A stretch of 64,000 nt of DNA from Eledone cirrhosa (Eukaryota), in the NCBI GenBank assembly GCA_964016885.1, contig OZ024757.1:22258001-22322000 (forward strand). The letters are read 5' to 3'. The notes under the pieces are model-generated. The model had not been told where the DNA came from. It ran no database searches and saw nothing but the letters and a program-made list of their open reading frames with translations. Positions within the stretch are counted from its first letter, which is position 1, and every line of letters starts with the position of its first letter. Shown piece by piece: positions 7,117 through 59,567 of the stretch. Both the position numbers and the translations under genes were made by a program.

Positions 7117-8560
7117 TCATCATCACCATTTAGGGTCCATTTTTCTACACTAATCCGTTATTGCCTGCAGGACTATGATGAACAGGAGAGGGCTAAGAAC
7201 AGAGCCCTGGTGGACCCCAACCTGTACGCTAAATTCCTCGCTATACTCATTGCCAATCCTAACTTTGCTGACTGCTCCCCTATACATGGCTTGTACCGTT
7301 TTCACAAGCCATTCATCTACTCCTAGTTTTCTAAGAGCCCACCAGATTACTGCATGTGGAACTCTGTCAAAGGCTTTCTCAAGCAAGTAGAGTGGCTTAC
7401 TTTTAGTTAGGTACTTTTCCTGTAATTGCCTCACAAGGAAGAGGGCATCAGTGGTGCCTTTCCCTGGTACAAACCCAAATTGCATCTCGTCTATATTCAC
7501 CCGGTCCCTAATCAGCTGTGCTATAACTCTTTCTGTTACTTTCATGACCTGGTCCATCAACTTTATACCTCTATAGTTTCCTCTATCTAGTGCATCGCCT
7601 TTACCTTTGTAGCAGTTGACAATGATGCTACTGCACCAATCTTTTGGTATGGCCCCCTCTAGTATTACCTGGTTAACGATACGTGTGGTTATAGTGTGAC
7701 CTACAGACCCAGATGCCTTCAGCATCTCGGCAGCTATACCCGATGGACCGGTTGCCTTCCCTATCTTCATATCTCTGATTGCCTTACTTACTACGCTGCC
7801 GCTGACTTGTACTGCTGGTCCCTCTATAGGGTCTACGTGGGGTAGGGTCTCTTCTTCCCATGCATTCTCCTCATTTAGTAATCTATCATAATGACTCTTC
7901 CATGCATCTTTCTTCTCAGCACTTGTGAGGGCAAGCTCACCTTTATCATTCCGGATACACTTCTCTCCAATGACATCACAACTATCTCTGACACACTGCC
8001 TCGCAATCTTGAATACCTCCTGTTTCTGGTCCTCACGTTGTAAAACATGCTTGAATTTTCTATCCTCTGCTTCCCTCCTAGCTAAGTATACTTGTCGCCT
8101 AGCTTCCCTCTTGGTCTCTATGTAATGTACCCTGCTCCCCCCGTTCTTCCATTCTTTCCATGCCTGTCTCTTGGCCTTGACTGCTTCATCTACCTTATTG
8201 TTCCACCACCAAGTCACTCTCCTCCTGCTTGAGGTCTTACTCCAGCCACAAACCTCATCCGTCGCCTCTAGTAAGTTATTTTTTAGGAACTCCCAGTTCT
8301 CTTCTACGTTAAATGTCTCTATCTGTTCTTCTTTACTGTCGTAGGCGTTGAGTAAAATATCTTTAAATCTGTTACTGGTTGAGGGGACTTTCAGCTTCCA
8401 GATCTTTCTTCTCCAGGTTGGCCTCTGTTTCAGGGCTCGTCTAGTTCTGACCGTGAGGTCACTGACAACTAAGCTATGTTGGGATGTACATTCCTCACTA
8501 GGGAAGGCTTTTGTGTTTACGACCGTCCATCTGTCACGTCCTCTGATGAGGATAAAATCT
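7117..8560 (-). mobile_element. RTE-clade LINE fragment: end of APE endonuclease, tether and N-terminal half of RT; inactive
   Basis: SQHSLVV (APE end), TWWWN, KATGPSG, YKGKGD..NYRGIKL, QFGFVPGKGTTDA, LEKAFDRV, GVHQGSVLSPLLF. Lacks AFVD before LEKAF and stops before YADD; fused directly to the (GAT)n tail. Confidence 0.93.
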
Positions 8561-9196
8561 AATGTATATATATAAAATCTAAAATCTAATGTATATATAT
8601 AAAATCTAATGTATATATATATACAAAGATATATTATATGTGTGAGTTTATGTATATATAATATACATATATACAAAGGCATATTATGTGTGTATAAGTG
8701 TATATATGTATGTGCATATGTAATGTCCGAGAATATCATATCACCCGGTCGGAGAATGAAACTCACAACCTCACGATTGGAAGCTCAATGCTCTAAACAC
8801 TAAGCCATGCACCTTCATATGTACATATGTAATATGTACAATGGCAACTAAAACAAAATACAATGGGGGAGAATATATAGTATGCTTCTGTAGTTATGGC
8901 TGAAGACTGTGTCTTCGGCATTGTTTGTGATACATTTCAAGAAAACAGTCTCTTATTATGAAGAAGCGACAACCATCTTAAACAGGAAATGTACAGGAAA
9001 TGAGCTGTGGGCTTTGTAGGGAAGGTGAGTTATACCATATATACATGTGTGGCATCATTGTCATATTCTAATATCCATTTTGCTTGTGTATATGTGTGTG
9101 TGTACCTGCATATATATATGTGTGTATGTGTGTGTATGTGTGTGTATGTGTGTGTTTATGTGTGTGTGTGTGTACATATAGACACACATATATACA

Positions 9197-11262: not shown

Positions 11263-11320
11263 ATACCTGATGATGTCACCGGATTCATACTGAACCCGGT
11301 CACTGAAATGATCATAGTAT
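11263..11320 (+). ncRNA. Type-I hammerhead ribozyme motif followed by AATAAA
   Basis: ATAC-CTGATGA-[tgtcACCGGaTTCA tac TGAAcCCGGTcact]-GAAA-TGATCA-TA-GTAT-AATAAA; palindromic stem III. Confidence 0.75.
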
Positions 11321-11548
11321 AATAAACCTTTTAAGGATTTACACCAGTCCAGCCTCCTGTTATTTTATAAAATATATATATATATATATAATTCGGAATA
11401 TAATCACTTATTTCTTAATGTTTGTTGAGTGAGTTGGAATTTGGCCGGAGTATCACTAAAAAGCTTTCTTTGATATTGTATTTATTATATATATATATAT
11501 ATATACAATATTAAATAAATGGAAACTATATTTATAAAACCATATTTA

Positions 11549-11606
11549 TTCTATTATATATATTTCAAGGGTACCAAAAATTTTGGTACGCTATCATCAG
11601 ATAAAA
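11549..11606 (-). ncRNA. Type-I hammerhead ribozyme motif (TTTTAT-stem family)
   Basis: Minus strand TTTTAT-CTGATGA-tagcGTACCAAAA t TTTTGGTACcctt-GAAA-TATATA-TA-ATAGAA; same family at 43570, 44474, 45938 and 46129. Confidence 0.75.
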
Positions 11607-11702
11607 TACAAAATGTTTTATAAATATTTGACATGACCAAGGTTGATATACCTTAACGGCTCAAGTTATCCCTGGAAATTCCAACAAATTAAATATCTCT
11701 TC

Positions 11703-19738: not shown

Positions 19739-19813
19739 GCTGTGATACATATTTCAATGACAACAGTGGCCATTTGATTCCATGCAACCAGTGCCATGAT
19801 CTCATCAGACAGC
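19739..19813 (-). ncRNA. Type-I hammerhead motif
   Basis: Minus strand GCTGT-CTGATGA-[gatcATGGCA...TGTCATt]-GAAA-TATGTA-TC-ACAGC, then AATAAA. Confidence 0.75.
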
Positions 19814-19949
19814 TTCATTACATAATAAAGTTACGTTCTGGAGGCAATCCAAATTTAAACTACAAGGGAACGAGCGAAGGCTTCAAAAACATCATCTTTG
19901 TCATTTTAATTTGGATTGCTTCCAGAACGTAACTTTATTATGTAATGAA

Positions 19950-20024
19950 GCTGCCTGATGAGATCATGGCACAGGTTGCGCAGAATAGTGTGGCCACTGT
20001 TGTCATTGAAACGTATATCACAGC
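19950..20024 (+). ncRNA. Type-I hammerhead motif (mirror of 19739)
   Basis: GCTGC-CTGATGA-[gatcATGGCACAG...CTGTTGTCATt]-GAAA-CGTATA-TC-ACAGC; AATAAA at 20031. Confidence 0.65.
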
Positions 20025-20114
20025 CTTATTAATAAAAGACTTTAATATCTACAACTACTTTGGATTTTCTTTCTTTCTCTCTCTCTCTATATATACATAT
20101 GCAAATAGTAACAA

Positions 20115-22764: not shown

Positions 22765-23840
22765 TGGAGGGGGAATATTAGGTGTAGTGTTGGTGAATCT
22801 CAGGAATGGAGGTTTTAAAGGATGCAGTGTCTCGACAGCTAACAACTGATGCCGGTAGTTTGTTCCATGCTTCAGCAACTCTGAGCGTGAAAAAATGTTT
22901 CCGAAAGTCATGGGAACTGTGCTGTTTTCTGACTTTGTGGGCATACCCACGTGTGTTAGACACATGGAAATCGAAAAGGTACTCAGGGTTGTTGTTGGCA
23001 AGATGGTTGATAATTCTGTGGATGTTTACCAAGTCAGTTGCGAGACATTGGAGCTACAATGTATCCATGCCCAGGGAAGCAAGGCATTCAGAGTATGGTA
23101 GATGCCTGCCTGGTGGAGGGTATTCGCTTGGTCGCACGTCTCTGAACAGTTTCCAGGCGGTCGATGTTCTGAGCAAGATAGGGGTTCCAGACTGGTGATG
23201 CAAATTCTAAGTGTGGCTGCACCATAGCTATATACAGCTTTAAATAGATAGCTGGAGAGCGGCTGACAAAGGTCTTGCTGAGTGATGCTAAGACACCCTC
23301 GGCCTTCTTGACAATTTTAGAGACGTGCTTCGTCCAATGCAAATCGTTGATGACCGTAATGTCCAGGTCACGCTCACAAGAAGACTTCTTGATATTAGTG
23401 GTGTGGAGGGAGTATGCGGACACTGGGTTTTTACTCCCAAAATGCATGGTGGTGCACTTGTCCACAGCCAACTTGAGTTGCCAGTCTGTGATCCATTGTT
23501 GCATTGTGTTCAGGTCAGATTGCAGGCAAGATCTATAGTGTTCAGGATCTGTCCTTTTTATCTCAAGGTACAGCTTGATGTCATCTGCATATTTCAGCAC
23601 TGTGGCATTCTTTAAGTTGGCATCTACGTCATTAATGTATGCCACAAACAAAAGGGGGCCAAGAACAGATCCCTGTGGTACACCAGATGACATCTCATAT
23701 GGTGAGGAATGCTGTCCTAGAATCGTGACTGCCTCTCTTCGACTGAGAATGAAGGACTTCAACCAGTTAAAAAGATCATCCTTTACACCCATTGCAGAGA
23801 GTTTTGCCATAAGTCTTTTGTGTGGCACAGAATTGAAAGC
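22765..23840 (-). mobile_element. CR1-clade LINE, 5'-truncated RT C-terminal half; frameshifted near 23100
   Basis: SVPH..L..KL, SGVPQGSVLGPLLF..YIND, KYADDIKLY, W...WQLKL...KC..MH, PHLEFASPVWNPY, VQRRATKRI; then TRGY..K..K....FRKHFFTLRVAEAWNKLPASVV. Confidence 0.92.
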
Positions 23841-24379
23841 GTTAAAGAGAAGGAAGTTGATTAAATTGACCTCAGTGCATTACAGGTACTTTATTTTATC
23901 GACACTGTAAGGATGAATGACAAGGCTAATTTTGGTGGGATTTGAACTCAGAATGTAAAGGTATGTAACTATATGCTGCAAGGCATGTTGTCTGATGCTA
24001 CTAACATAGATTCTCATGTGAGCAAACATAGGAAAGGAAGGGCTGGTCTTTGATGGTAAAAACTGTTAAATATGATCATTTATGACCCCCACCTCCCATA
24101 CATATCATTCCTTTCATGTTCTACTTATTATCATTATATCATATTACCCCCACCCAACCTCCACACCAATCACATTGGGATGATTAAATTTAATATTCTA
24201 GGGTTTAATGTTTAATTTCATTGTTAAAAAATTAATGTTTCTTAATCCTTTATTTTAAAATATGAGAAAGAAATTTACAATTGAACGACATTTACATACA
24301 AAAAAAAAATGAAAAAGAATAGGAAAATGTAAAGGAAATGGAGAGGGAGTGACAGACTCTACACCCTTGTATAGGGAGC

Positions 24380-31731: not shown

Positions 31732-33205
31732 AATAATTGTTTCTACTTTTGGCACAAGGCCAACAATTATCCCAGTGTATTACTGGTACTTTATTTTATC
31801 GACCCCGTAAGGATGAAAGCAAGGTTAACCTCAGCGGGATTTGAACTCAGAATGGCAAGGGCCGTAACTCTATGCGTCAAAGCATGGCATCCAACCCCCC
31901 CTACCGATACTGCCAATCCACCGCCCTGTGAATATATCCATCCTCTGTGAATATAAGATTAATGAAAGGCAACTATCAGAATGAGTAAAAAGAAGAACAA
32001 AGTATTCTGAAATAGGGTGTGAACGAGGATGTAAAACAATAATTCTTCCTTTGATGTCAGCATGGGGACAGAAAATCCACTGAAATATGTGAATTATTTG
32101 GTCATTTAGATTTTACACTTGTTACACACTAGATTGATTGTTTACATGGTAACTTTTACAGTAATGATCTTTTAATATTCCCTAAGATGATCATCCAACA
32201 AGCTGTTAAACTTGTTAAACTTGAGTAAATCTTGTTAATTTATTCAAAGATTTAAACTTTAAAACCATAATGAACACCAACAATAATTTACTTTATCTTT
32301 ATATTCAGATAGTTATACCACTACTGTAGAAAACCTAATGAAATGCTTAAATTACATCCACAAGAATTTGAACCACAATTTCTCCTAATAATCGATCCAA
32401 TATATGAATATCTGATTGTCTAACATATCAGAGGAGTTAAGCCTTTTGATATCAAACTTCCTGAAACCACCCTGAATTTACAATGCAAAACTGATCCTTT
32501 TAAAATATCTTTACTGATATTAAATCCTTCCATCATAATATATGCAAACGAGTCTCTTCAGCTGATGTTCCATGTGCAAAAACCACATAAGCTGTAACAT
32601 ACACTTGTCTCAGTAGCCTGAGACTGATGATGGATAAACATCCAGAAATAGCTATCTGACAGTCTTTCCCCGACTAAGATAGCTGTAACATGATAACAGC
32701 TTTTAAAAGATTCATAACACGACTCTTGTATGGTTATTATACATGACAATAACGGTAGTGTATTGGCAGTATCAGAAGAGCATCGAACAACATTCTTTGT
32801 GGTATAGAGTTATGGCCCTTTATGTTCTGAGTTCAAATCCTGCTGTGATTAGCTTTGCCTTCATACTTATGGGGTCGATATAATATAATATCAGTAATAC
32901 ACTGGGATCAATTTAATCGACTTCTCCTCTCCCCAGAAGGCTATACAGATATATATATACATACATACACACACACATATATATATACATACACACAACA
33001 GGTACTAGCAGGGAAGGCGGAGTGGCAGTATCAGTAGAGGGTTGGACGCTGTGCTTTGCAGCAAAGAGTTACGGCCCTTTATGGTCTGAGTTCAAATCCT
33101 GCCGAGGTTAACTTTGCCTTTCATCCTTACGGGGGTCGATAAAATAAAGTACCAGTAATACACTGGGATAATTGCTGGCCTTGTGCCAAAAGTAGAAACA
33201 ATTAT
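31732..33205. mobile_element. Three SINE-B copies: 31732-31926 (-), about 32752-32935 (+, old), 33012-33205 (+)
   Basis: SINE-B head, core and tail motifs. Confidence 0.82.
32618..32662 (+). ncRNA. Type-I hammerhead motif
   Basis: ctgaga-CTGATGA-TGGAT(aaac)ATCCA-GAAA-TAGCTA-TC-tgacag; perfect stems II and III, two mismatches in stem I. Confidence 0.65.
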
Positions 33206-33297: not shown

Positions 33298-34192
33298 CGA
33301 GGTGTGTTAGTAAAGGTCCAGGACTGATGCCACAAAAGATTTATTTCAAACCCAAACTTCACACTAAGAGTTTTCTCCTTCAAAGTAATCCCCCTGGAGT
33401 ATGTAACTGTAATCTTAGCTCTCTGCAGCGATCAAACTTTTTTCTTCATAATTTTATATACATGTCCTCTGTTTCAGGTCGTCAAGCAATGAGCACAGAG
33501 TAACGAACAAACTTGAAAACTCCGTCAGAAGCACTGGGATTGCTGCAGCAAGTGTATGAAGATGAGACGATGTCATGGTCACGTGTTTTTGAGTGGTGCA
33601 AGAGGTTTAAAGAAGGACGCGAGGATGTGGAAGATGACCCCAGGAGCGGAAGGCTCTCAACAACCAGGACTGAGGTCAACGTTGAGTGCGTCAGGCAGAT
33701 GGTGCGTAGCAATCGTCGGCTGACTGTTCGACTGATGGCAAATGAGCTGGGCATGAATCGGGACTGCGTCTGGAAGATTCTCGCTGCAGATTTGGACATG
33801 CAGAAAGTCTGCGCGAAGATGGTGCCAAAACTGCTGAACGATGACCAGAAGGGTCGACGCATGCAAGTGTGCCAGGACATCCTCGAGCGTCTTGAAACCG
33901 AGCCAGACTTGCTAGGGACAGTCATCACCGGTGATGAGTCATGGATCTTCGAGCACGACTCAGATGGGACCCGTTTTGAAGACGTGGACGACATCAAACA
34001 GGCCGTGACAACGGCACTGCGGAGGATCCCGGAAGAATCCTCTAGGAGTGCATGCAAGCATGGCAGAAAAGGATGGAAAAGTGCATTAGACACCAGGGGG
34101 ATTACTTTGAAGGAGAAAACTCTTAGTGTGAAGTTTGGGTTTGAAATAAATCTTTTGTGACATCAGTCCTGGAACTTTTCTGACCCACCTCA
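33298..34192 (+). mobile_element. Internally deleted mariner element with about 100-bp inverted termini
   Basis: VFEWCKRFKEGREDVEDDPRSGR, KVCAKMVPKLL, VITGDESWIF, then a jump to GTRFEDVDDIK; frameshifted GDYFEGE end; TA flanks; 33298-33400 is the reverse complement of about 34090-34192. Confidence 0.93.
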
Positions 34193-40830: not shown

Positions 40831-41004
40831 TATATAGAAATATATATATGCATACATATTAATATGTATATAAATATGCAAGCACATGTAAACGCCCCCC
40901 CCCCCTCCCCCACACACACAACAACATATAAAATCAAAGATATAACACTGTATATATTGTTCAAAGGAGGTTCTGTCCATGCATGTGTGTGCATATATAT
41001 ATAT

Positions 41005-41038
<34 letters not shown>

Positions 41039-41039
41039 G

Positions 41040-41740
41040 TCTGTGGAAGACTTACGTAGATTAGAGAGAAACGAAGCCTGCATGCTCCGATGGATGTGTA
41101 ATAGTAATATACGCGAACGGCAAAGCATAAATGAAATGAGAGAGAGACAGAGCACAAGAGGAATCAAATGCTGTGTGCAGGAGAGGCGGTTGTGTTGGTA
41201 TGGACATGTGATGCGTATGAAGCATGACAGTTGCATAAAAAGGTGCAGAGCACTAGAAGTCGATGGAAACCGCGGAATGGGGAGACCCAAGAAGACCTGG
41301 GGTGAGGTGATAAAAGCCGACCTTACCCAATTACACCTCTCAAAGGTGACGACACACGACCGTGACCTCTGGCGTCACGCAGTAATACAGAAGACCCGAC
41401 CCCCCACGGGTACAAGCCGAAGCTAAAGGATATAGACAATATGCCCCCCACACACTCCCACTGTAAAGTGGTCGTGGAGGTGTCACGGCAAAAAAGCACT
41501 CAGCCTACACTGTAAAGTGGACGTAGAGGTGTCACAGAAAAAAGCACCTAGCCACACTGTAAAGTGGACGTGGATGTGCCACAGAAAAAAGCACCCAGCA
41601 CTCACTGTAAATGAGGTTGGTGTAAGGAAGGGCATGCAGCTGTGGAAATCAGGCCAGAATCAGTAACCATATGGGCAACAGGACAACCCGTCTAACCCAT
41701 GTTAACGTGGAAGAACGGACGTAAAACGGTGATGATGATA
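41040..41740 (+). mobile_element. RTE LINE 3' end (ORF C-terminus, 3'UTR, GAT tail)
   Basis: RRLERNEACMLRWMC..RRLCWYGHVMRM..G.RGMGRPKKTW..DRDLWR. Confidence 0.9.
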
Positions 41741-44473: not shown

Positions 44474-44535
44474 TTTTATTATATATATTTCGGAGGTACT
44501 GTGCTGTTTTTTCAGTACGTCCTCATCAGATAAAA
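44474..44535 (-). ncRNA. Type-I hammerhead ribozyme motif, apparently intact
   Basis: Minus strand TTTTAT-CTGATGA-GGAcGTACTG(aaaaaacagca)CAGTACcTCC-GAAA-TATATA-TA-ATAAAA. Confidence 0.82.
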
Positions 44536-44760: not shown

Positions 44761-44799
44761 TGAACAAGTACTTTCATGCTTTCGCAATCTTCAGGTTCA
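44761..44799 (-). ncRNA. Minimal type-I hammerhead motif
   Basis: Minus strand TGAAC-CTGAAGA-tTGC(gaaa)GCAt-GAAA-GTAC-TT-GTTCA; GNRA-capped stem II, palindromic stem III. Confidence 0.75.
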
Positions 44800-45105: not shown

Positions 45106-45937
45106 TAATACTGTGATCTGTGTGTATGTGAATGTGTGTACAACACAGCTATATATATATGTGGATGTGTGTGTGTGTGAATGTGTGTACAACACAGCTA
45201 TATATATATATGTTGATGTGTGTGTATGTGTGTCTACAAGACAGATGTATATAAATGGACGAGTATACATGTGTGTGTGTCTGTACCAGAGAGCTGTATA
45301 TGTGAATGTTTGTGTATGTGAGTGTGTATATATGTTGATGTGTGTGTACAAAACAGCTGCACATATGTGGATATGTATACATGTGTGTGTATGTGTGTAC
45401 ACAAAACAGCTGCATATATTTGGATGTGTATACACATCTTTTCATGGAGTTTATTTATTGGAGAGATACCATACAGATAAAATACTTCGAAATGCATGAA
45501 AAGGAAATGGAACATGGAAACAGAGAATTTCATGCATGCATGAGCCCTTAACTGTTGATTGAGTCCTAGGGACGCTGTAGTGACATACATTTATACTCAG
45601 TGGAACCCACTCCCTATTCAAGTGAAAATACAGCTGATTTCCTCAAGTGAGACAGTGAGAGTGAGGAAGAGATATAGAAGTGTCAACCTCTGTACTTGAC
45701 TGGTACTTTGTTTATTGACCTTGAAATAAATTGTATTGTAGTATCAATGGCAGGTTTAGCTAGGTTAATATCGAAATGTTGAATATATATATATATATAT
45801 ATATGCAAAAGTTTTATTTAAAATTGTTGGGTTACAACAAGTAAATATTTTATAACCGATATAAAGCACTCGACAAGTTTTTGGAGTAGATATACGATAT
45901 TAAACAAATGGAAACTATATTTATAAAACCATATTTA

Positions 45938-45999
45938 TTTCATTATACATATTTCAGGGATACCATATTAAAAATATGGCATGCCTTCGTCAGATAAAA
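45938..45999 (-). ncRNA. Type-I hammerhead motif (mirror of 46129)
   Basis: Reverse complement of 46129-46190. Confidence 0.78.
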
Positions 46000-46128
46000 T
46001 ACAATATATAAACAGTTTTATAAATAATTTTGACGTACCATAAATATAATTTTGACGTACCATAAATATAATGGTCGCTTATATTTATGGTACGTCAAAA
46101 TTATTTATAAAACTGTTTATATATTGTA

Positions 46129-46190
46129 TTTTATCTGACGAAGGCATGCCATATTTTTAATATGGTATCCCTGAAATATGTATAATGAAA
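46129..46190 (+). ncRNA. Type-I hammerhead motif
   Basis: TTTTAT-CTGACGA-AGGcATGCCATATT(ttt)AATATGGTATcCCT-GAAA-TATGTA-TA-ATGAAA, overlapping AATAAA. Confidence 0.78.
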
Positions 46191-47339
46191 TAAATATGGT
46201 TTTATAAATATAGTTTCCATTTGTTTAATATCGCAAGATTCAAACAATTTATTAAAATAAATTAAAAAATATAATTTAAATATTCACCTATTCCATTTGC
46301 TTTTACCAACGGTTTCACCTCACAAAAGCTTGGAAATCCTAGGGACTTCCAATGGAAATGTTCGGATCTTCAGAGACCATTTTCCCTACCTAGCACAAAA
46401 GTCCTAGGAACGGCAAAATATATTGCCACCTGCCAGCTAGCACAGGATCGAATGAGGCCGTAAACTTGACCTGTGCATGAACCAGCCCTTAGTAGAAGCA
46501 AAAGTAAACATAGACGTGTTGTCTATCACGCCACTAAAAATAGCAACTAAATAAAATAAAATTAATCTCCGTTTATATATATATATATATTTATATATAA
46601 TAGTATGTTATTTGAAGGCTATCAGAATGCAAAATGGACGGTAGATTTCGTAATAAATTGAAGGCAATGAAGATGTTGGTGTGTCACCTGTTATTTTATT
46701 TACCTGTCCTAATATTTTGGGTCTAAAAACTCTTTGTAAGAAGAATATAATAAGAATCTGGATTGAAGTTCATGCTTTTGTTGTTACATGTATCTGTATG
46801 TGTGTATGTATATATTTATATACACATACATATACGTGTGTGTGTGTGTGTTAGTTTTTGTTGTGGAGACAATTGAGTTAGTGGTTAGTTTGATCAGTTC
46901 ATAACTGTAAGGTAGTGAGTTCAATCCCTGCCTGCACCATGCAGCATGTTGTATCCTTGAGCAAGACACTTTATTTCATGTTACTCCAGTGGTCTGAAGT
47001 CTTATCTCTTTCTACTGTATTAACAATATCGAAAGCTCTAATAACAGAACAAAATGATCTGTTGTGGACCAGGGTCAGATGAAGCCATCCTATTTTTATA
47101 TATTTAAAGAAACTTTCTCCCCAATCCTAAGTGTCATCTGATTAACGCATAAGAGTGAGATAAGAGGCATAATTATTGAACTCACTGATATCAACTTTAT
47201 ATGAGAAAGGTGACTGGTTTGATCTATCGAGACTCCAGTAATACCATCATTAACAGGTTCTATACTATTGGTTTAATTGATTCAGAGCTACTACCAAAAT
47301 CTACCTAATTAGCACTTTACTGTACATACTCACATGGAA

Positions 47340-47690
47340 TGAAGAATCCTGGCATCTGAGCACAAGAGCTACAGAAGGTTGCTACATATCCTGTACAAAA
47401 CAAACAGCTTTGTCAGGCAGCAGGTTAACAATTATACTGGCAGACAGGAACTACTTCTTGCAATAGAGAAAAGACAGAAGCTGGAAGATTGCCTGGTATG
47501 GTCATGTATCCCACCACAGCTCCTTTTCTTAAACCATTCTTCAGGGTACAGTTAAGGGAGGGCAAACAAGAGGCAAACAAAGAAACTCCTGGTCCAGCAA
47601 CATCAAAGACTGGACCGATCACAGTACTGGGACATTTTTATGCATGATGGAGAATATAGATCAGTGGCAACAGCTGCCTATGAGAAAGTG
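47340..47690 (+). mobile_element. Old RTE LINE C-terminal remnant
   Basis: EHKSYRRLLHI / TNSFVRQQV / WYGHV / TILQGTVKGG..RGKQRNSW..NIKDWT in shifting frames. Confidence 0.75.
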
Positions 47691-48906
47691 GAACCCCAAC
47701 AACTGGCTGGACCAGTGGCACATCTAGAGTGGCACCCCAACAACTGGCTGCACCAGTGGCACATCTAGAGTGGCACCCCAACGACTGGCTGCACCAGTGG
47801 CACATCTAGAGTGGCACCCCAACAACTGGCTGCACCAGTGGCACATCTAGAGTGGCACCCCAACGACTGGCTGCACCAGTGGCACATCTAGAGTGGCACC
47901 CCAACGACTGGCTGCACCAGTGGCACATCTAGAGTGGCACCCCAACAACTGGCTGCACCAGTGGCACATCTAGAGTGGCACCCCAACGACTGGCTGCACC
48001 AGTGGCACATTTAGAGTGGCACCCCAACAACTGGCTGCACCAGTGGCACATCTAGAGTGGCACCCCAACAACTGGCTGCACCAGTGGCACATCTAGAGTG
48101 GCACCCCAACGACTGGCTGCACCAGTGGCACATCTAGAGTGGCACCCCAACAACTGGCTGCACCAGTGGCACATCTAGAGTGGCACCCCAACAACTGGCT
48201 GCACCAGTGGCACATCTAGAGTGGCACCCCAACGACTGGCTGCACCAGTGGCACATCTAGAGTGGCACCCCAACAACTGGCTGCACCAGTGGCACATCTA
48301 GAGTGGCACCCCAACAACTGGCTGCACCAGTGGCACATCTAGAGTGGAACCCCAACGACTGGCTGCACCAGTGGCACATCTAGAGTGGCACCCCAACGAC
48401 TGGCTGCACCAGTGGCACATCTAGAGTGGAACCCCAACGACTGGCTGCACCAGTGGCACATCTAGAGTGGCACCCCAACGACTGGCTGCACCAGTGGCAC
48501 ATCTAGAGTGGAACCCCAACGACTGCCTGCACCAGTGGCACATCTAGAGTGGCACCCCAACGACTGACTGCACCAGTGGCACATCTAGAGTGGCACCCCA
48601 ACGACTGACTGCACCAGTGGCACCCCAACGACTGCCTGCACCAGTGGCACATCTAGAGTGGCACCCCAACGACTGACTGCACCAGTGGCACCCCAACGAC
48701 TGGCTGCACCAGTGGCACATCTAGAGTGGAACCCCAACGACTGCCTGCACCAGTGGCACCCCAACGACTGCCTGCACCAGTGGCACATCTAGAGTGGAAC
48801 CCCAACGACTGGCTGCACTAGTGGCACATCTAGTGTGACACCCCAATGACTGGCTGTGCCAGTGGCACATCTAGTGTGACACCCCAATGACTTGCTGCAT
48901 CAGTGG
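47688..48906 (+). repeat. 41-bp minisatellite, about 30 units
   Basis: gtggcaccccaac(a/g)actggctgcaccagtggcacatctaga; homogeneous middle, 27-bp deletion variants and decay at the right end. Confidence 0.97.
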
Positions 48907-52038: not shown

Positions 52039-52578
52039 TTAAGGAAAGTCACTACAGAAATGTACTTTTATAAATATATATTTTTGGTACATATGTTAGC
52101 ACAAATTGGTGTATATACATATGTGTGTGTGTGTGCGCGCACAAGTGTTTGTGTATATATCTACCTATGTGTGTGTGTGTGTGTGTATGTGTGTGTGTGT
52201 TTGCATATGCTCCAATATATTTCGAACTTGAAGCTCTGTCTGAAGTTATAAATATGTAACAAATAGCAAGCATGTATGTTGTATGTGTGTAAGTAATTCT
52301 ATAAATATATATATGCGTACATATGTCTGCATGTATATATACACACACACACACACATATATACACACACACACACACATATAGGTACATATGTGTATGC
52401 ATGTATATGTGTGTATATATATAGATATATAGATATAAATATATGCATAGGTTTTTTAAATACATATCTGCTCTGCTCTCTTTGAAGTAGATATATTAGT
52501 CTGCTATTATATTGCTGTCTATTTATATGGACAACTAAACCAATAAATGGACACAATATTAGACTACATACATTGTTG

Positions 52579-52614
<36 letters not shown>

Positions 52615-52911
52615 TATACATAGATAAACATATACATACATATTTACCTATATTCATGACATGTGTATTGGCATATGTATTTATCTCTTTATATCAATAT
52701 CTGTCAGTATATATATATATATATATATATAATGTGTGTGTATTTATGTATGTAACCATATGCTTGGATAAAAGGAAACATGTGAAAGTCTTCATTCATG
52801 CTTATATAAATATACATAATTATATACACACATCTATGTGCACTGATGTATGAACTTATATTAATAAAAATGCTCATTCAAATTCACACTCAGCTATTTA
52901 TATATATATAC

Positions 52912-52971
<60 letters not shown>

Positions 52972-53031
52972 CCAAGGCTCTGATACCATCAACACTATAA
53001 ACACAGAGCTGGCATATCTAAGAACTGACTA

Positions 53032-53089
53032 ACTGCCTGATGAGGTCATAGCCATTCAATGGCTATCATCGAAATATATATATAGCAGT
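53032..53089 (+). ncRNA. Type-I hammerhead ribozyme motif, apparently intact
   Basis: ACTGC-CTGATGA-GGTcATAGCCAT(tca)ATGGCTATcATC-GAAA-TATATATA-TA-GCAGT-a-AATAAA; element about 52972-53135 between microsatellites. Confidence 0.85.
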
Positions 53090-53130
53090 AAATAAAGGAT
53101 TATGAGTTCATGCAATTGACTTATGTTTCG

Positions 53131-53203
<73 letters not shown>

Positions 53204-53437
53204 CTACAGTTATATGGATGTGTAACTACAGTTATATATACATGGCAAGAGAGATATATCATTTTCATCATCAAAACCTCCATTTTCCCATGCTAAGTTG
53301 AATGGTTACCACAGAACAAATCAATATTAATCAGTGCTACTGACCTCCCCATTGGGCTGGGAGCCTGCATCTTATTTACTCATATATACACAAAAATAAG
53401 CGGAGGAATATGTAACCAAAGAAAAACCTATCGATGA

Positions 53438-53481
<44 letters not shown>

Positions 53482-53619
53482 ACCTAAACAATACACTGAT
53501 TCACTGCCTCAGATTATAAAGGGGTTTGGATTTTTACCCATCTTTCAGACATAAAATAGTCGGTCGGCTTATATTTGGATTGTCTTATATTTGAGTATAT
53601 ACAACATATATGTTCACAC

Positions 53620-57242: not shown

Positions 57243-58092
57243 TCATCATCATCATCATCATCTTTGTTTAATGTCCATTATCCACGCTAGCATGGGTTAG
57301 ACGGGAGTTGTCCCACTTGAGGCAAGGCTGGTCGGGTGACCATGTCTCACTCATATAGGACTATCTGGCAGGTTTTCTACGGCTGGATGCCCTTTCTAAC
57401 ACCAACCACATTCACAGTGTGGAACTGGGAACTTTTTACCGTGTTACCTACACAGCCACATTACAGCGTGGACTGTGTGTGTTTTTTTTTTGTCGTGACA
57501 CCTACACGAACTCGATCTCATTTTCTCGTGCTGTTGGTGGGAGTGGGAGGATAGGGTAGGGGTAGTAGATTGGGGTGTATATTTGGTTAAGAGGTGCCTA
57601 CTGACTGTAGGTTTCACTTTGTACATAGGCAAGGCGGGTCTTCTGTATTACTGCGTAGCGCCAAAGATCTCGGTCCAGAGACATTGTCTTAGAGAGATGT
57701 AAGTGTGTGAGGTCGGAATTTATCAGATCATCCCAGGTTTTTCTGGGTCTACCTACTCCGTAACTACCATCAATTTTGATCGCCCTGCACTTTTTTATGC
57801 AGCTGTCGTCTTTCATGCACATCACGTGACCATACCAACGTAGTCTTCTCTTAAGTAAACAGCATCTGATCCCTCTTATTCCTAATTTCTCACTTAGTTC
57901 ATTTATGCTTTGCTGTTCACGTATATTACTATTACACATCCAACGGAGCATGCATGCTTCGTTCCTTTCCAGTCTACGCAGGTCCTCTGCATGTAATGCC
58001 CACGTCTCACTGCGATGTAGGATTGCTGTTCGTATACAGGCATCATACAATCTGCCTTTCATTTTTAGAGAGAAACCTTTTGTGGCCAACAG
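57243..58092 (-). mobile_element. RTE LINE 3' end (ORF C-terminus, 3'UTR, GAT tail)
   Basis: KGRLYDACIRTAILH.SETW..RRLERNEACMLRWMC..RRLRWYGHV..GRPRKTW..DRDLWR. Confidence 0.92.
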
Positions 58093-59567
58093 CGGTATAA
58101 GCTCTATATATACAGAGAGAGAAATATATTTAATTATTAATTGTAATTACTGTTTTGACCAAGGTAGCTTAACAGACTAATAATTAAACAATTATCCAGG
58201 TTTTTCCCCCATTTCCAATGAACCAAGGATCACATTATTCAAGGAGTCTCTACCCAAATATAACAAAGTGTGGTAAGAGGTTGAATTTTAGCTGCTATTT
58301 CTAACACATTGAACGACCAAGTAGAGGTTAGCCTAATTACACTAACATTTTAGCAAAAACTACTTTAGGTGATATGAAATAATTTTAGTGTGTTCTGTAT
58401 GAATATGAAATTATTTTGGCTCCATCACGTCCACATTTTGATCTACAAAATATCCCACATATACTACATTTTCAGAAAAAAGTGTCTAATCTTGTGAACG
58501 TATTTTATTAATGTACTAAATTACAATCAATTACTTAAAATAACAATATACACTTAGAAAAACCTTACCACAAAAAATTTACAGCAAAGAAAAGGAATGG
58601 ATACCCAACCATCCACCTAAGGGGCTGTTTAATGCATGGTCCCATAACTCCTGGTGTATCATAGGGGTATCATATTGACATAGAGCATTTTTAAACCCTG
58701 GCATTTTTAAATCCTGGCAGAGCCCAGTTGTTTCCAGGTCTGAATACAGCAAATTTCTTTCAGAAAAGATAGAAAATGAGATAATGGAAGGGAGAAAAGA
58801 GATATAGAGGAAGAATCGACCTCAGTACTTGACCGGTACTTTTTTTTATCGACTTTGAATGGATGAAAGGCAAAGTTGAACTCAGAGAGTGGCGAGCTGG
58901 AACCTTAAAGCATTCTGTCTGACATTCTAATGACTCTGCCAATTCACTGCCTGCTACTTTATATATCAGAATTGAAAACATTATTTGCTACTTATGAAGC
59001 ATTAGTGGAACATTTCAGATTAATAGTAACTATATAGTATAGATTTTATATTTATCAAAAAAATATGATTTTGATTTTAGAAAAAAAAGTGGTTAAGAAC
59101 AATCTTTGAAAACAATCACAACAATTTTTTTTTTTATTATTAAATAAACTAAAATATGTTTTTATAAGAAGGAAATAAATTCAGCCATTCAGTACTACAA
59201 GAAATATTTTATTTTCAATTCATGTCCAAAATTTTATTTATTGTGGGTCAAAGTTACAGTTTAAATGAAATTCATTGCTCTTACTTTAGGGCTGACTATA
59301 AATTACAACAGATCGGTGAAGTGATATAAATTTTTATTTTTTTCACCATCATATAAATGGGATATTTATATCATTCGAAAATTTTAGTGTTTTATTAGTA
59401 TGAAGGATGTTTTGGAGGTATAGAAGAAGAAATAAAATATAAATATGACTGAATCATAATATTATTGCTTAGAGAGAAAAAAATATATTGGATATCAAAT
59501 TGTGAGGTGGAGTGAATAGAGAAGAATATCATTTCAAAGAGAGATATTAGTCAGCTATTATCTATCA

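Follow-up and report, generated by a model that had tools for sequence, protein, structure and literature searches.

The role of the hammerhead ribozyme in endonuclease-bearing Penelope-like elements (PLEs) is called unclear in print (PMC8557442). The same paper gives (TA)n as the insertion preference of Hydra families and the length of the clade as generally under 3 kb, a tendency rather than a rule, and the helix III region of the Hydra hammerheads printed in its supplement measures 8–10 nt. As single motifs, PLE hammerheads failed to cleave, and cleavage of the dimers was weak (PMC4209133). The hammerhead of a Poseidon element cleaved only with the element protein; there the ribozyme is protein-assisted and uncut RNA is the dominant substrate (PMC11167929). 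For axolotl retrozymes, monomer cleavage was 22% with a 2-bp helix III versus 6% with a 1-bp helix III, and dimers still performed better than monomers when helix III was longer (PMC7229834).

We analysed a 64-kb stretch of DNA, here called the window, whose first base is position 1. A short island in it holds a hammerhead motif. Very probably this island is the 3′ end of a high-copy Hydra-clade PLE, likely placed by target-primed reverse transcription of uncut RNA into (TA)n. Its hammerhead likely needs either dimer formation or the element protein in order to function, so that the lone copy would probably be an inactive remnant.

The motif (53032..53089, + strand, as are all its parts) is a type I hammerhead of a pseudo-LTR, with CUGANGA and GAAA boxes, three helices, an NUH triplet and ends that lie in stem I. 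A 5-bp stem I (53032-53036 with 53085-53089), the first catalytic-core box CUGAUGA (53037..53043) and the GAAA box (53071-53074) can be read directly from the sequence. The long stem II (53044..53070) has 12 positions and a 3-nt loop, with a C-C mismatch at pair 4 (53047/53067) and one G-U wobble. The 10 nt after GAAA form the palindromic stem III strand (UA)5 (53075-53084), ending in the AUA triplet, and the cut is predicted after 53084. AATAAA, a feature of the family, lies directly 3′ of stem I (53091..53096). An earlier note on this DNA, made by reading the sequence, had described stem I, both boxes, the triplet and the AATAAA just downstream, and all of these were found where it had placed them; its predicted cut agrees with standard hammerhead numbering. 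Its 12-bp stem II with one mismatch is right as to the 12 positions and the C-C mismatch but leaves out the wobble, and its island of about 160 bp between microsatellites is present and measures 164 bp (52972-53135).

In a monomer, stem III is predicted to consist of three A-U pairs, including A15.1-U16.1, around a 4-nt loop, at +3.6 kcal/mol in isolation. The motif shares with dimer-type PLE hammerheads a short palindromic helix III, a long helix II, a helix I of 4–5 bp and the pseudo-LTR location. It departs from the minimal form in that stem II pairing starts at the first base after the core, as is also the case for several Hydra motifs as published (PMC8557442 supplement). Among the 91 motifs of the window copy's group, the stem III strand is self-complementary in 89 and AATAAA is present in 83.

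The window copy (52968..53137, + strand) is 5′-truncated and keeps only the final 170 bp of a ∼4-kb unit, a Penelope-like retrotransposon of the Hydra clade. Over this length it shares 97.6% identity with the 3′ terminus of the 3,968-bp unit in locus L106; it is the sole piece of that unit within the 64-kb window, and has no coding part. No second piece of the family was found in the window, and no match to the stem III pattern in the 9 kb on either side; nor were tandem hammerhead units, as in non-LTR retrozymes, found around this single copy in the window. The 5′ flank is (TA)n followed by (TG)n (52918..52971, no strand assigned). On the other side, a predicted tail hairpin of −8.2 kcal/mol (53097..53129, +) comes just before the fixed 3′ end of the element (53131..53137, +), the probable start of reverse transcription, 51–53 nt downstream of the predicted cut. 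The (TA)n target microsatellite (53136..53202, no strand assigned) follows, in keeping with the preference of Hydra families. In the sister family, one copy has a predicted tail hairpin that differs in sequence, and for two others the prediction is only weak.

The family is abundant. A 21-nt core pattern has 3,020 exact matches in the 3.0-Gb genome, versus 0 for the reversed control, and the 33-nt 3′ half of the window copy is matched exactly at 107 genome places. The earlier note had ranked this locus as the best single ribozyme candidate; that ranking falls, given eight motifs by a relaxed descriptor in the window itself, the 107 exact matches and the thousands of retrotransposon ends of which this is one, and the locus itself is of little weight.

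We selected 30 loci by the core, these being the first 30, all on contig C1, with two of them belonging to a single insertion as its arms. Around the core, all of them are almost identical to the window copy. The 3′ end falls at the same base in 26 of the 30 and enters a TA run in 22, as expected for Hydra-clade insertion into (TA)n. The 5′ ends vary; 12 loci have theirs between −64 and −73 relative to the core, and the window copy belongs to this short class. Its 5′ junction lies at a common truncation point of the family, about 65–72 nt upstream of the core, and a genome pattern count gave 446 exact TA-run junctions at −72, versus only 4 at a similar TA-like site. This truncation hotspot (window 52965-52972) lies at a 6-bp palindrome and is seen on three haplotypes. 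The reading of −72 as the transcription start of full-length templates is unsupported, none of seven upstream tandem copies starting there. We also set aside a resemblance between 52975-52987 and the primer site for plant tRNA-Met, the stretch being internal 3′ UTR.

Upstream extension was carried out for 10 of the 30 loci, and several of these run into a frame with reverse transcriptase (RT) and endonuclease. A protein search gave 150 scored matches, from which 20 loci were picked for long frames or a nearby hammerhead. The island is present in 18 of these 20 and on both sides of the frame in seven, as direct tandems 3,950–4,178 bp apart, a count that omits L110, which has a further upstream match but belongs to a sister family. 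This spacing gives a unit longer than the Hydra tendency of <3 kb. The 847-aa frame of L102, aligned with 119 of the 150 homologues, has a predicted fold with mean pLDDT 82. Foldseek ranks two telomerase reverse transcriptases as the best PDB matches to this fold, with E-values of 2.3e-9 and 5.7e-9; TM-scores are low (0.26–0.30 by query). The RT frame contains a YRDD motif. Pfam gave nothing significant in five element frames, and a PDB sequence search with the element protein gave nothing meaningful. The C-terminus has VVY...YIG, R, E and N motifs, and its Atlas neighbours have GIY-YIG in 26–50% of their members; motifs and neighbours together point to a putative C-terminal nuclease of GIY-YIG type, while no GIY-YIG structure was among the PDB matches listed for the whole L102 fold and none was found in Pfam.

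Several features place the element within the PLEs. Inverted arms, that is, inverted 5′-truncated copies as in other PLEs, occur in L002, L003/L004, L046, L057, L113 and L117. Copies that pass the main 3′ end without entering the frame stop 88–91 nt further on in eight of nine insertions, two of the eight being read by eye across a small deletion; this amounts to a lengthened form of the known tail. RMRWR (with RWR for RWK) is found in 6 of the 20 loci, most of the others being 5′-truncated, and DKT in 9; among 33 long homologues DK[TS] is present in 29 and DKG in none. Most of the 20 loci have the linker CNCRDPSLC (CxCX5C) along with CNLC..E and LN...CRH, and CCHH is absent from the translations as judged by eye. 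The Neptune clade was dropped from consideration on the CxCX5C linker and the absence of DKG. A short open frame ending just before stem I was likewise rejected as the element protein, which ends >1 kb upstream. By its motifs the element looks like an endonuclease-bearing (EN+) Hydra-clade PLE, and seemingly an additional family of that described clade, because the octopus Hydra family in the supplement of PMC8557442 has a different hammerhead sequence.

Related families are present in the same genome. A second family of Hydra type is represented by L034 (at 3929 and 7578) and L039; its hammerheads lie 3.65 kb from each other, and pair 4 is a C-U mismatch. In a sister family at L124:200, L067, L035:5142, L045 and L110, stem I and the 8-nt TA strand are unchanged, but stem II has compensatory changes and the tail differs.

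Do genomic copies record cleavage? Starts at the predicted cut site number 10, versus 446 at −72 and 4 at the other TA-like site, a rough ratio in that the patterns differ slightly in length and TA run, and we rejected the idea that cleavage is recorded in this way. Because the fixed 3′ end lies downstream of the cut, core-holding copies were copied across the cut site, and we infer that their templates were uncut or re-ligated. These genomic ends agree with in vitro evidence of copying from uncut RNA (PMC11167929). A sequence of events of the following kind can be proposed. The element's nuclease would nick a TA tract, and target-primed reverse transcription would start 51–53 nt downstream of the predicted cut with uncut RNA as template. 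Copying would pass through the ribozyme and halt after 170 nt, leaving a 5′-truncated island. The palindromic stem III would pair, in the parent element, with that of a second copy, and the extra TA of the window copy would have slipped in during or after insertion. In L046 and L136 the inverted arms join inside stem II of the ribozyme, which suggests the hairpin as a fold-back point.

A self-standing origin of the island is unlikely: the 170-bp unit would be a non-autonomous mini-element, SINE- or retrozyme-like, that spreads by way of a short RNA of its own. Short copies sharing both ends are very common (12 of the 30 loci; 446 exact 5′ junctions), contigs show loose ends and a step in depth at either end of the unit (three contig runs, one sample), and animal retrozymes have been proposed to derive from pseudo-LTRs (bioRxiv 10.64898/2026.07.22.740005). 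The same three haplotypes, however, occur in short and in long copies, which argues for repeated truncation rather than one founder. Nor was a tandem array of the unit present at the window locus or in the loci read. Also counting against a mini-element, we know of no promoter in the 170-bp unit.

The earlier note had proposed that slippage of (TA)n in stem III could switch the ribozyme between dimer-dependent and monomeric activity, and had suggested a comparison of stem III lengths among genomic copies. This comparison was run and found lengths of 6 to 16 nt. Exact matches with the same flanks, counted for lengths of 6, 8, 10 and 12 nt after GAAA only, gave 15, 2,607, 107 and 14 copies, so that 8 nt is kept in 2,607 of the 2,743 counted copies (95%). 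The window copy is a 10-nt form, one TA above the family's 8. Another pattern gave 15 loci, five of which have a 16-nt stem III, four with unbroken stem II; the 16-nt copies, including L121, L129, L130 and L131, would by the predicted folds be the best natural candidates for monomer cleavage.

The extra TA is a recurrent, copy-level slip, because the 10-nt form spans three flank haplotypes (12, 4 and 4 copies), the same three on which the 8-nt form occurs (8, 4 and 6), and because paired copies of one insertion differ in stem III: 10 and 8 nt in L106, 10 and 12 in L136, and 10 and 8 in L057, where the pair has a private substitution in common. The three haplotypes and unequal pairs rule out a single 10-nt subfamily. 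Expansions exceed contractions (107 versus 15), an excess for which biased slippage or a small number of source copies of the 10-nt form could account. Related families retain an 8-nt self-complementary strand with other sequences, and this suggests that the palindrome, rather than the microsatellite, is under selection.

Whether a longer strand would allow a monomer to cut was assessed from predicted folds. The figures are nearest-neighbour values that ignore Mg2+, tertiary contacts and protein and are uncalibrated against a known-active hammerhead: for strands of 8, 10 and 16 nt, the predicted active monomer fold accounts for 0.05, 0.5 and 2%, stem III pairing in the monomer for 1.4, 11 and 43%, and intermolecular self-pairing of the strand for −3.2, −5.6 and −12.8 kcal/mol. 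A double hammerhead is predicted to lie below two monomers by 5.0 (8 nt) and 7.8 kcal/mol (10 nt). In the predicted minimum-energy fold (z = −1.5), which is inactive, stem II's 3′ arm is paired with the core. Dimers may also misfold, because the best predicted dimer keeps a misfolded core and lies 2.8 kcal/mol below the active dimer. The suggestion that stem III might be long enough to fold as a monomer is thus not borne out for this copy, which has three A-U pairs and a predicted active fold of 0.5%.

The length variation that the slippage proposal requires is real, then, but the switch is unsupported, because 8 nt is retained in 95% of the counted copies, an 8-nt palindrome persists in related families, and an extra TA strengthens the dimer too. 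That the extra TA lets the window copy cleave as a monomer, in any + strand transcript crossing the site, seems to us quite improbable. Variants do exist, up to 16 nt; stem III pairing is predicted at 11% instead of 1.4%, and reaches 43% at 16 nt; published Hydra hammerheads have 8–10 nt in this region (PMC8557442); and monomer cleavage in axolotl was greater with a longer helix III (PMC7229834). Set against this are a predicted active fold below 1% for the window copy, a stem III made entirely of A-U pairs, no extension of stem I in the sequence for the usual loop 1-loop 2 contact, retention of 8 nt in 2,607 of 2,743 copies, a predicted gain for the dimer equal to that for the monomer, and a frame scan of the window that identified no host gene across the site. 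A graded gain in monomer cleavage from an extra TA is plausible by analogy with axolotl retrozymes, whose monomers cleaved more when helix III was longer (PMC7229834). Non-cleavage of a lone transcript would not show the motif to be spurious; the refutation proposed in the earlier note, a lack of Mg2+-dependent cleavage, is too strict because PLE hammerheads are reportedly silent as lone motifs (PMC4209133) or without protein (PMC11167929).

Around the window copy we identified no host gene, in a Pfam search at E <0.001 over 129 of 143 complex frames that may have missed short exons; the only matches were two RT pieces and one transposase-type helix-turn-helix (HTH). Outside stem III, the window copy differs from its sister copies by few private changes, and its intact core is best read as a sign of youth, because its features are inherited from the family and the private changes are few. 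Co-option by the host, with the copy serving as a ribozyme and poly(A) signal that regulate a local transcript, is accordingly very unlikely: the intact core and adjoining AATAAA that could suggest it are both family inheritance, intactness amounts to youth where private changes are few, and the Pfam matches in window frames are pieces of mobile elements only.

The window contains further motifs. Six belong to families with the same C-C mismatch (11263-11320 +, 11547-11608 −, 19739-19813 −, 44474-44535 −, 45936-46001 − and 46127-46192 +); they have the 8-nt palindrome and mostly an adjacent AATAAA. Head-to-head hammerhead pairs lie at 45936-46192 and 19739-20030, an inverted arrangement typical of Penelope-like insertions. 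Hammerhead-like motifs with a short stem II, from other families, lie at 44761-44799 −, 682 + and 32620-32668 +, the latter two having passed only looser filters or none. Other remnants of mobile elements (7153-8784 −, 23091-23879 −, 33504-34157 +, 40932-41423 + and 57601-58146 −) comprise two RVT_1 frames, a transposase-type HTH and two LINE-like C-terminal fragments resembling the L118 frame. A 41-bp minisatellite of ∼30 copies with 90% match occupies 47687-48906.

A strict descriptor that found five motifs in the 64-kb window gave none in any of 100 shuffles (block-wise, dinucleotide), which upholds the hammerhead that the earlier note had called at 53032-53089. Between families of this genome, which are related and not independent, stems I and II stay paired with differing sequences, and in the sister family a U-A pair of stem II has become C-G. 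Rfam gave no hammerhead match at gathering score in the whole window, a result of little weight as no known PLE hammerhead served as positive control, and none among 48 matches at E ≤ 10 within 52500-53600. Although stem III consists of TA repeats, which abound in this genome, the folding z-score is only −1.5 and Rfam has no match, a chance product of TA-rich sequence is ruled out for practical purposes by the empty shuffles and the compensatory changes, and the motif sits in a pseudo-LTR, where published hammerheads of this kind occur (PMC8557442).

Overall, we read this as a real hammerhead motif from an additional family of a described clade, in a copy that is probably inactive. The window and the fetched loci together yield 22 hammerhead groups, partly close kin. 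In nine of these, stem II is long, its pair 4 is a C-C or C-U mismatch, and the strand is an 8-nt AT...AT; eight of the nine include one or more members with AATAAA next to stem I, versus none of the 13 others. A narrow literature search found no description of the C-C mismatch of PLE hammerheads and, in the parts of the papers it covered, no treatment of a poly(A) signal beside them. The ribozyme subclass (C-C mismatch, 8-nt palindrome and adjacent AAUAAA) and the truncation hotspot are possibly new. We suggest only tentatively, as something we would sooner doubt than expect, an undescribed subclass of Hydra hammerheads with 3 bp, C-C, a long stem II, an AT...AT palindrome and AAUAAA, in which cutting and polyadenylation would be alternative fates and the longest slips would be active as monomers. 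If true, cleavage would separate the mRNA from its own poly(A) signal, and the thousands of copies would form a natural stem III series from 6 to 16 nt, the longest slips being scattered monomer-active ribozymes. The family is in any case a handy test set, with natural stem III lengths of 6, 8, 10, 12 and 16 nt, on which the boundary between monomer and dimer could be measured without designed mutants.

Among known systems, the Hydra clade (Hydra-1_Obim and Penelope-1_NV; Craig et al. 2021, PMC8557442) is the one that this element resembles in its single RT-endonuclease frame with RW(K/R) and DKT, its CxCX5C linker, and its CxxC and CxH around conserved E and N, as well as in a (TA)n target, a hammerhead ∼100 nt from the 3′ end and tandem or inverted 5′-truncated copies. 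Unlike the clade as described there, the unit is ∼4 kb rather than <3 kb, with two low-confidence protein inserts and a 3′ UTR of 1.1–1.6 kb, and it has RWR in place of RWK. Its hammerhead is unlike the sequence given for Hydra-1_Obim: stem II is longer and has the C-C mismatch, and stem III is made up entirely of A and U (PMC8557442).

With the minimal type I hammerheads of PLEs (Cervera and de la Pena 2014, PMC4209133) it shares a 5-bp helix I, a long helix II, a short palindromic helix III, the G10.1-C11.1 pair, and an occurrence mostly as single dispersed truncated copies with some close opposite-strand pairs. The helix III strand here is, unlike theirs, 8–10 nt and a TA run; in the parts of that paper considered, we found no mention of a C-C mismatch or an adjacent AAUAAA.

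The Anolis Poseidon element PAc (Frangieh et al. 2024, PMC11167929) likewise has two fixed ends that define a tail, an AT-rich target and copying through an uncut hammerhead, the last known here from genomic ends alone. It belongs to another clade, its tail is 30–40 nt versus 88–91 nt here, and its hammerhead overlaps the start codon, whereas ours lies ∼240 nt before the apparent start (PMC11167929).

Metazoan non-LTR retrozymes, finally, are also short non-coding units with a type I hammerhead, related to pseudo-LTRs (PMC7229834; bioRxiv 10.64898/2026.07.22.740005), and we count as a further likeness that helix III length grades their monomer cleavage (PMC7229834). Retrozymes, however, are tandem arrays with loop-loop tertiary contacts, whereas the hammerhead described here occurs in one copy, which is collinear with an autonomous element.
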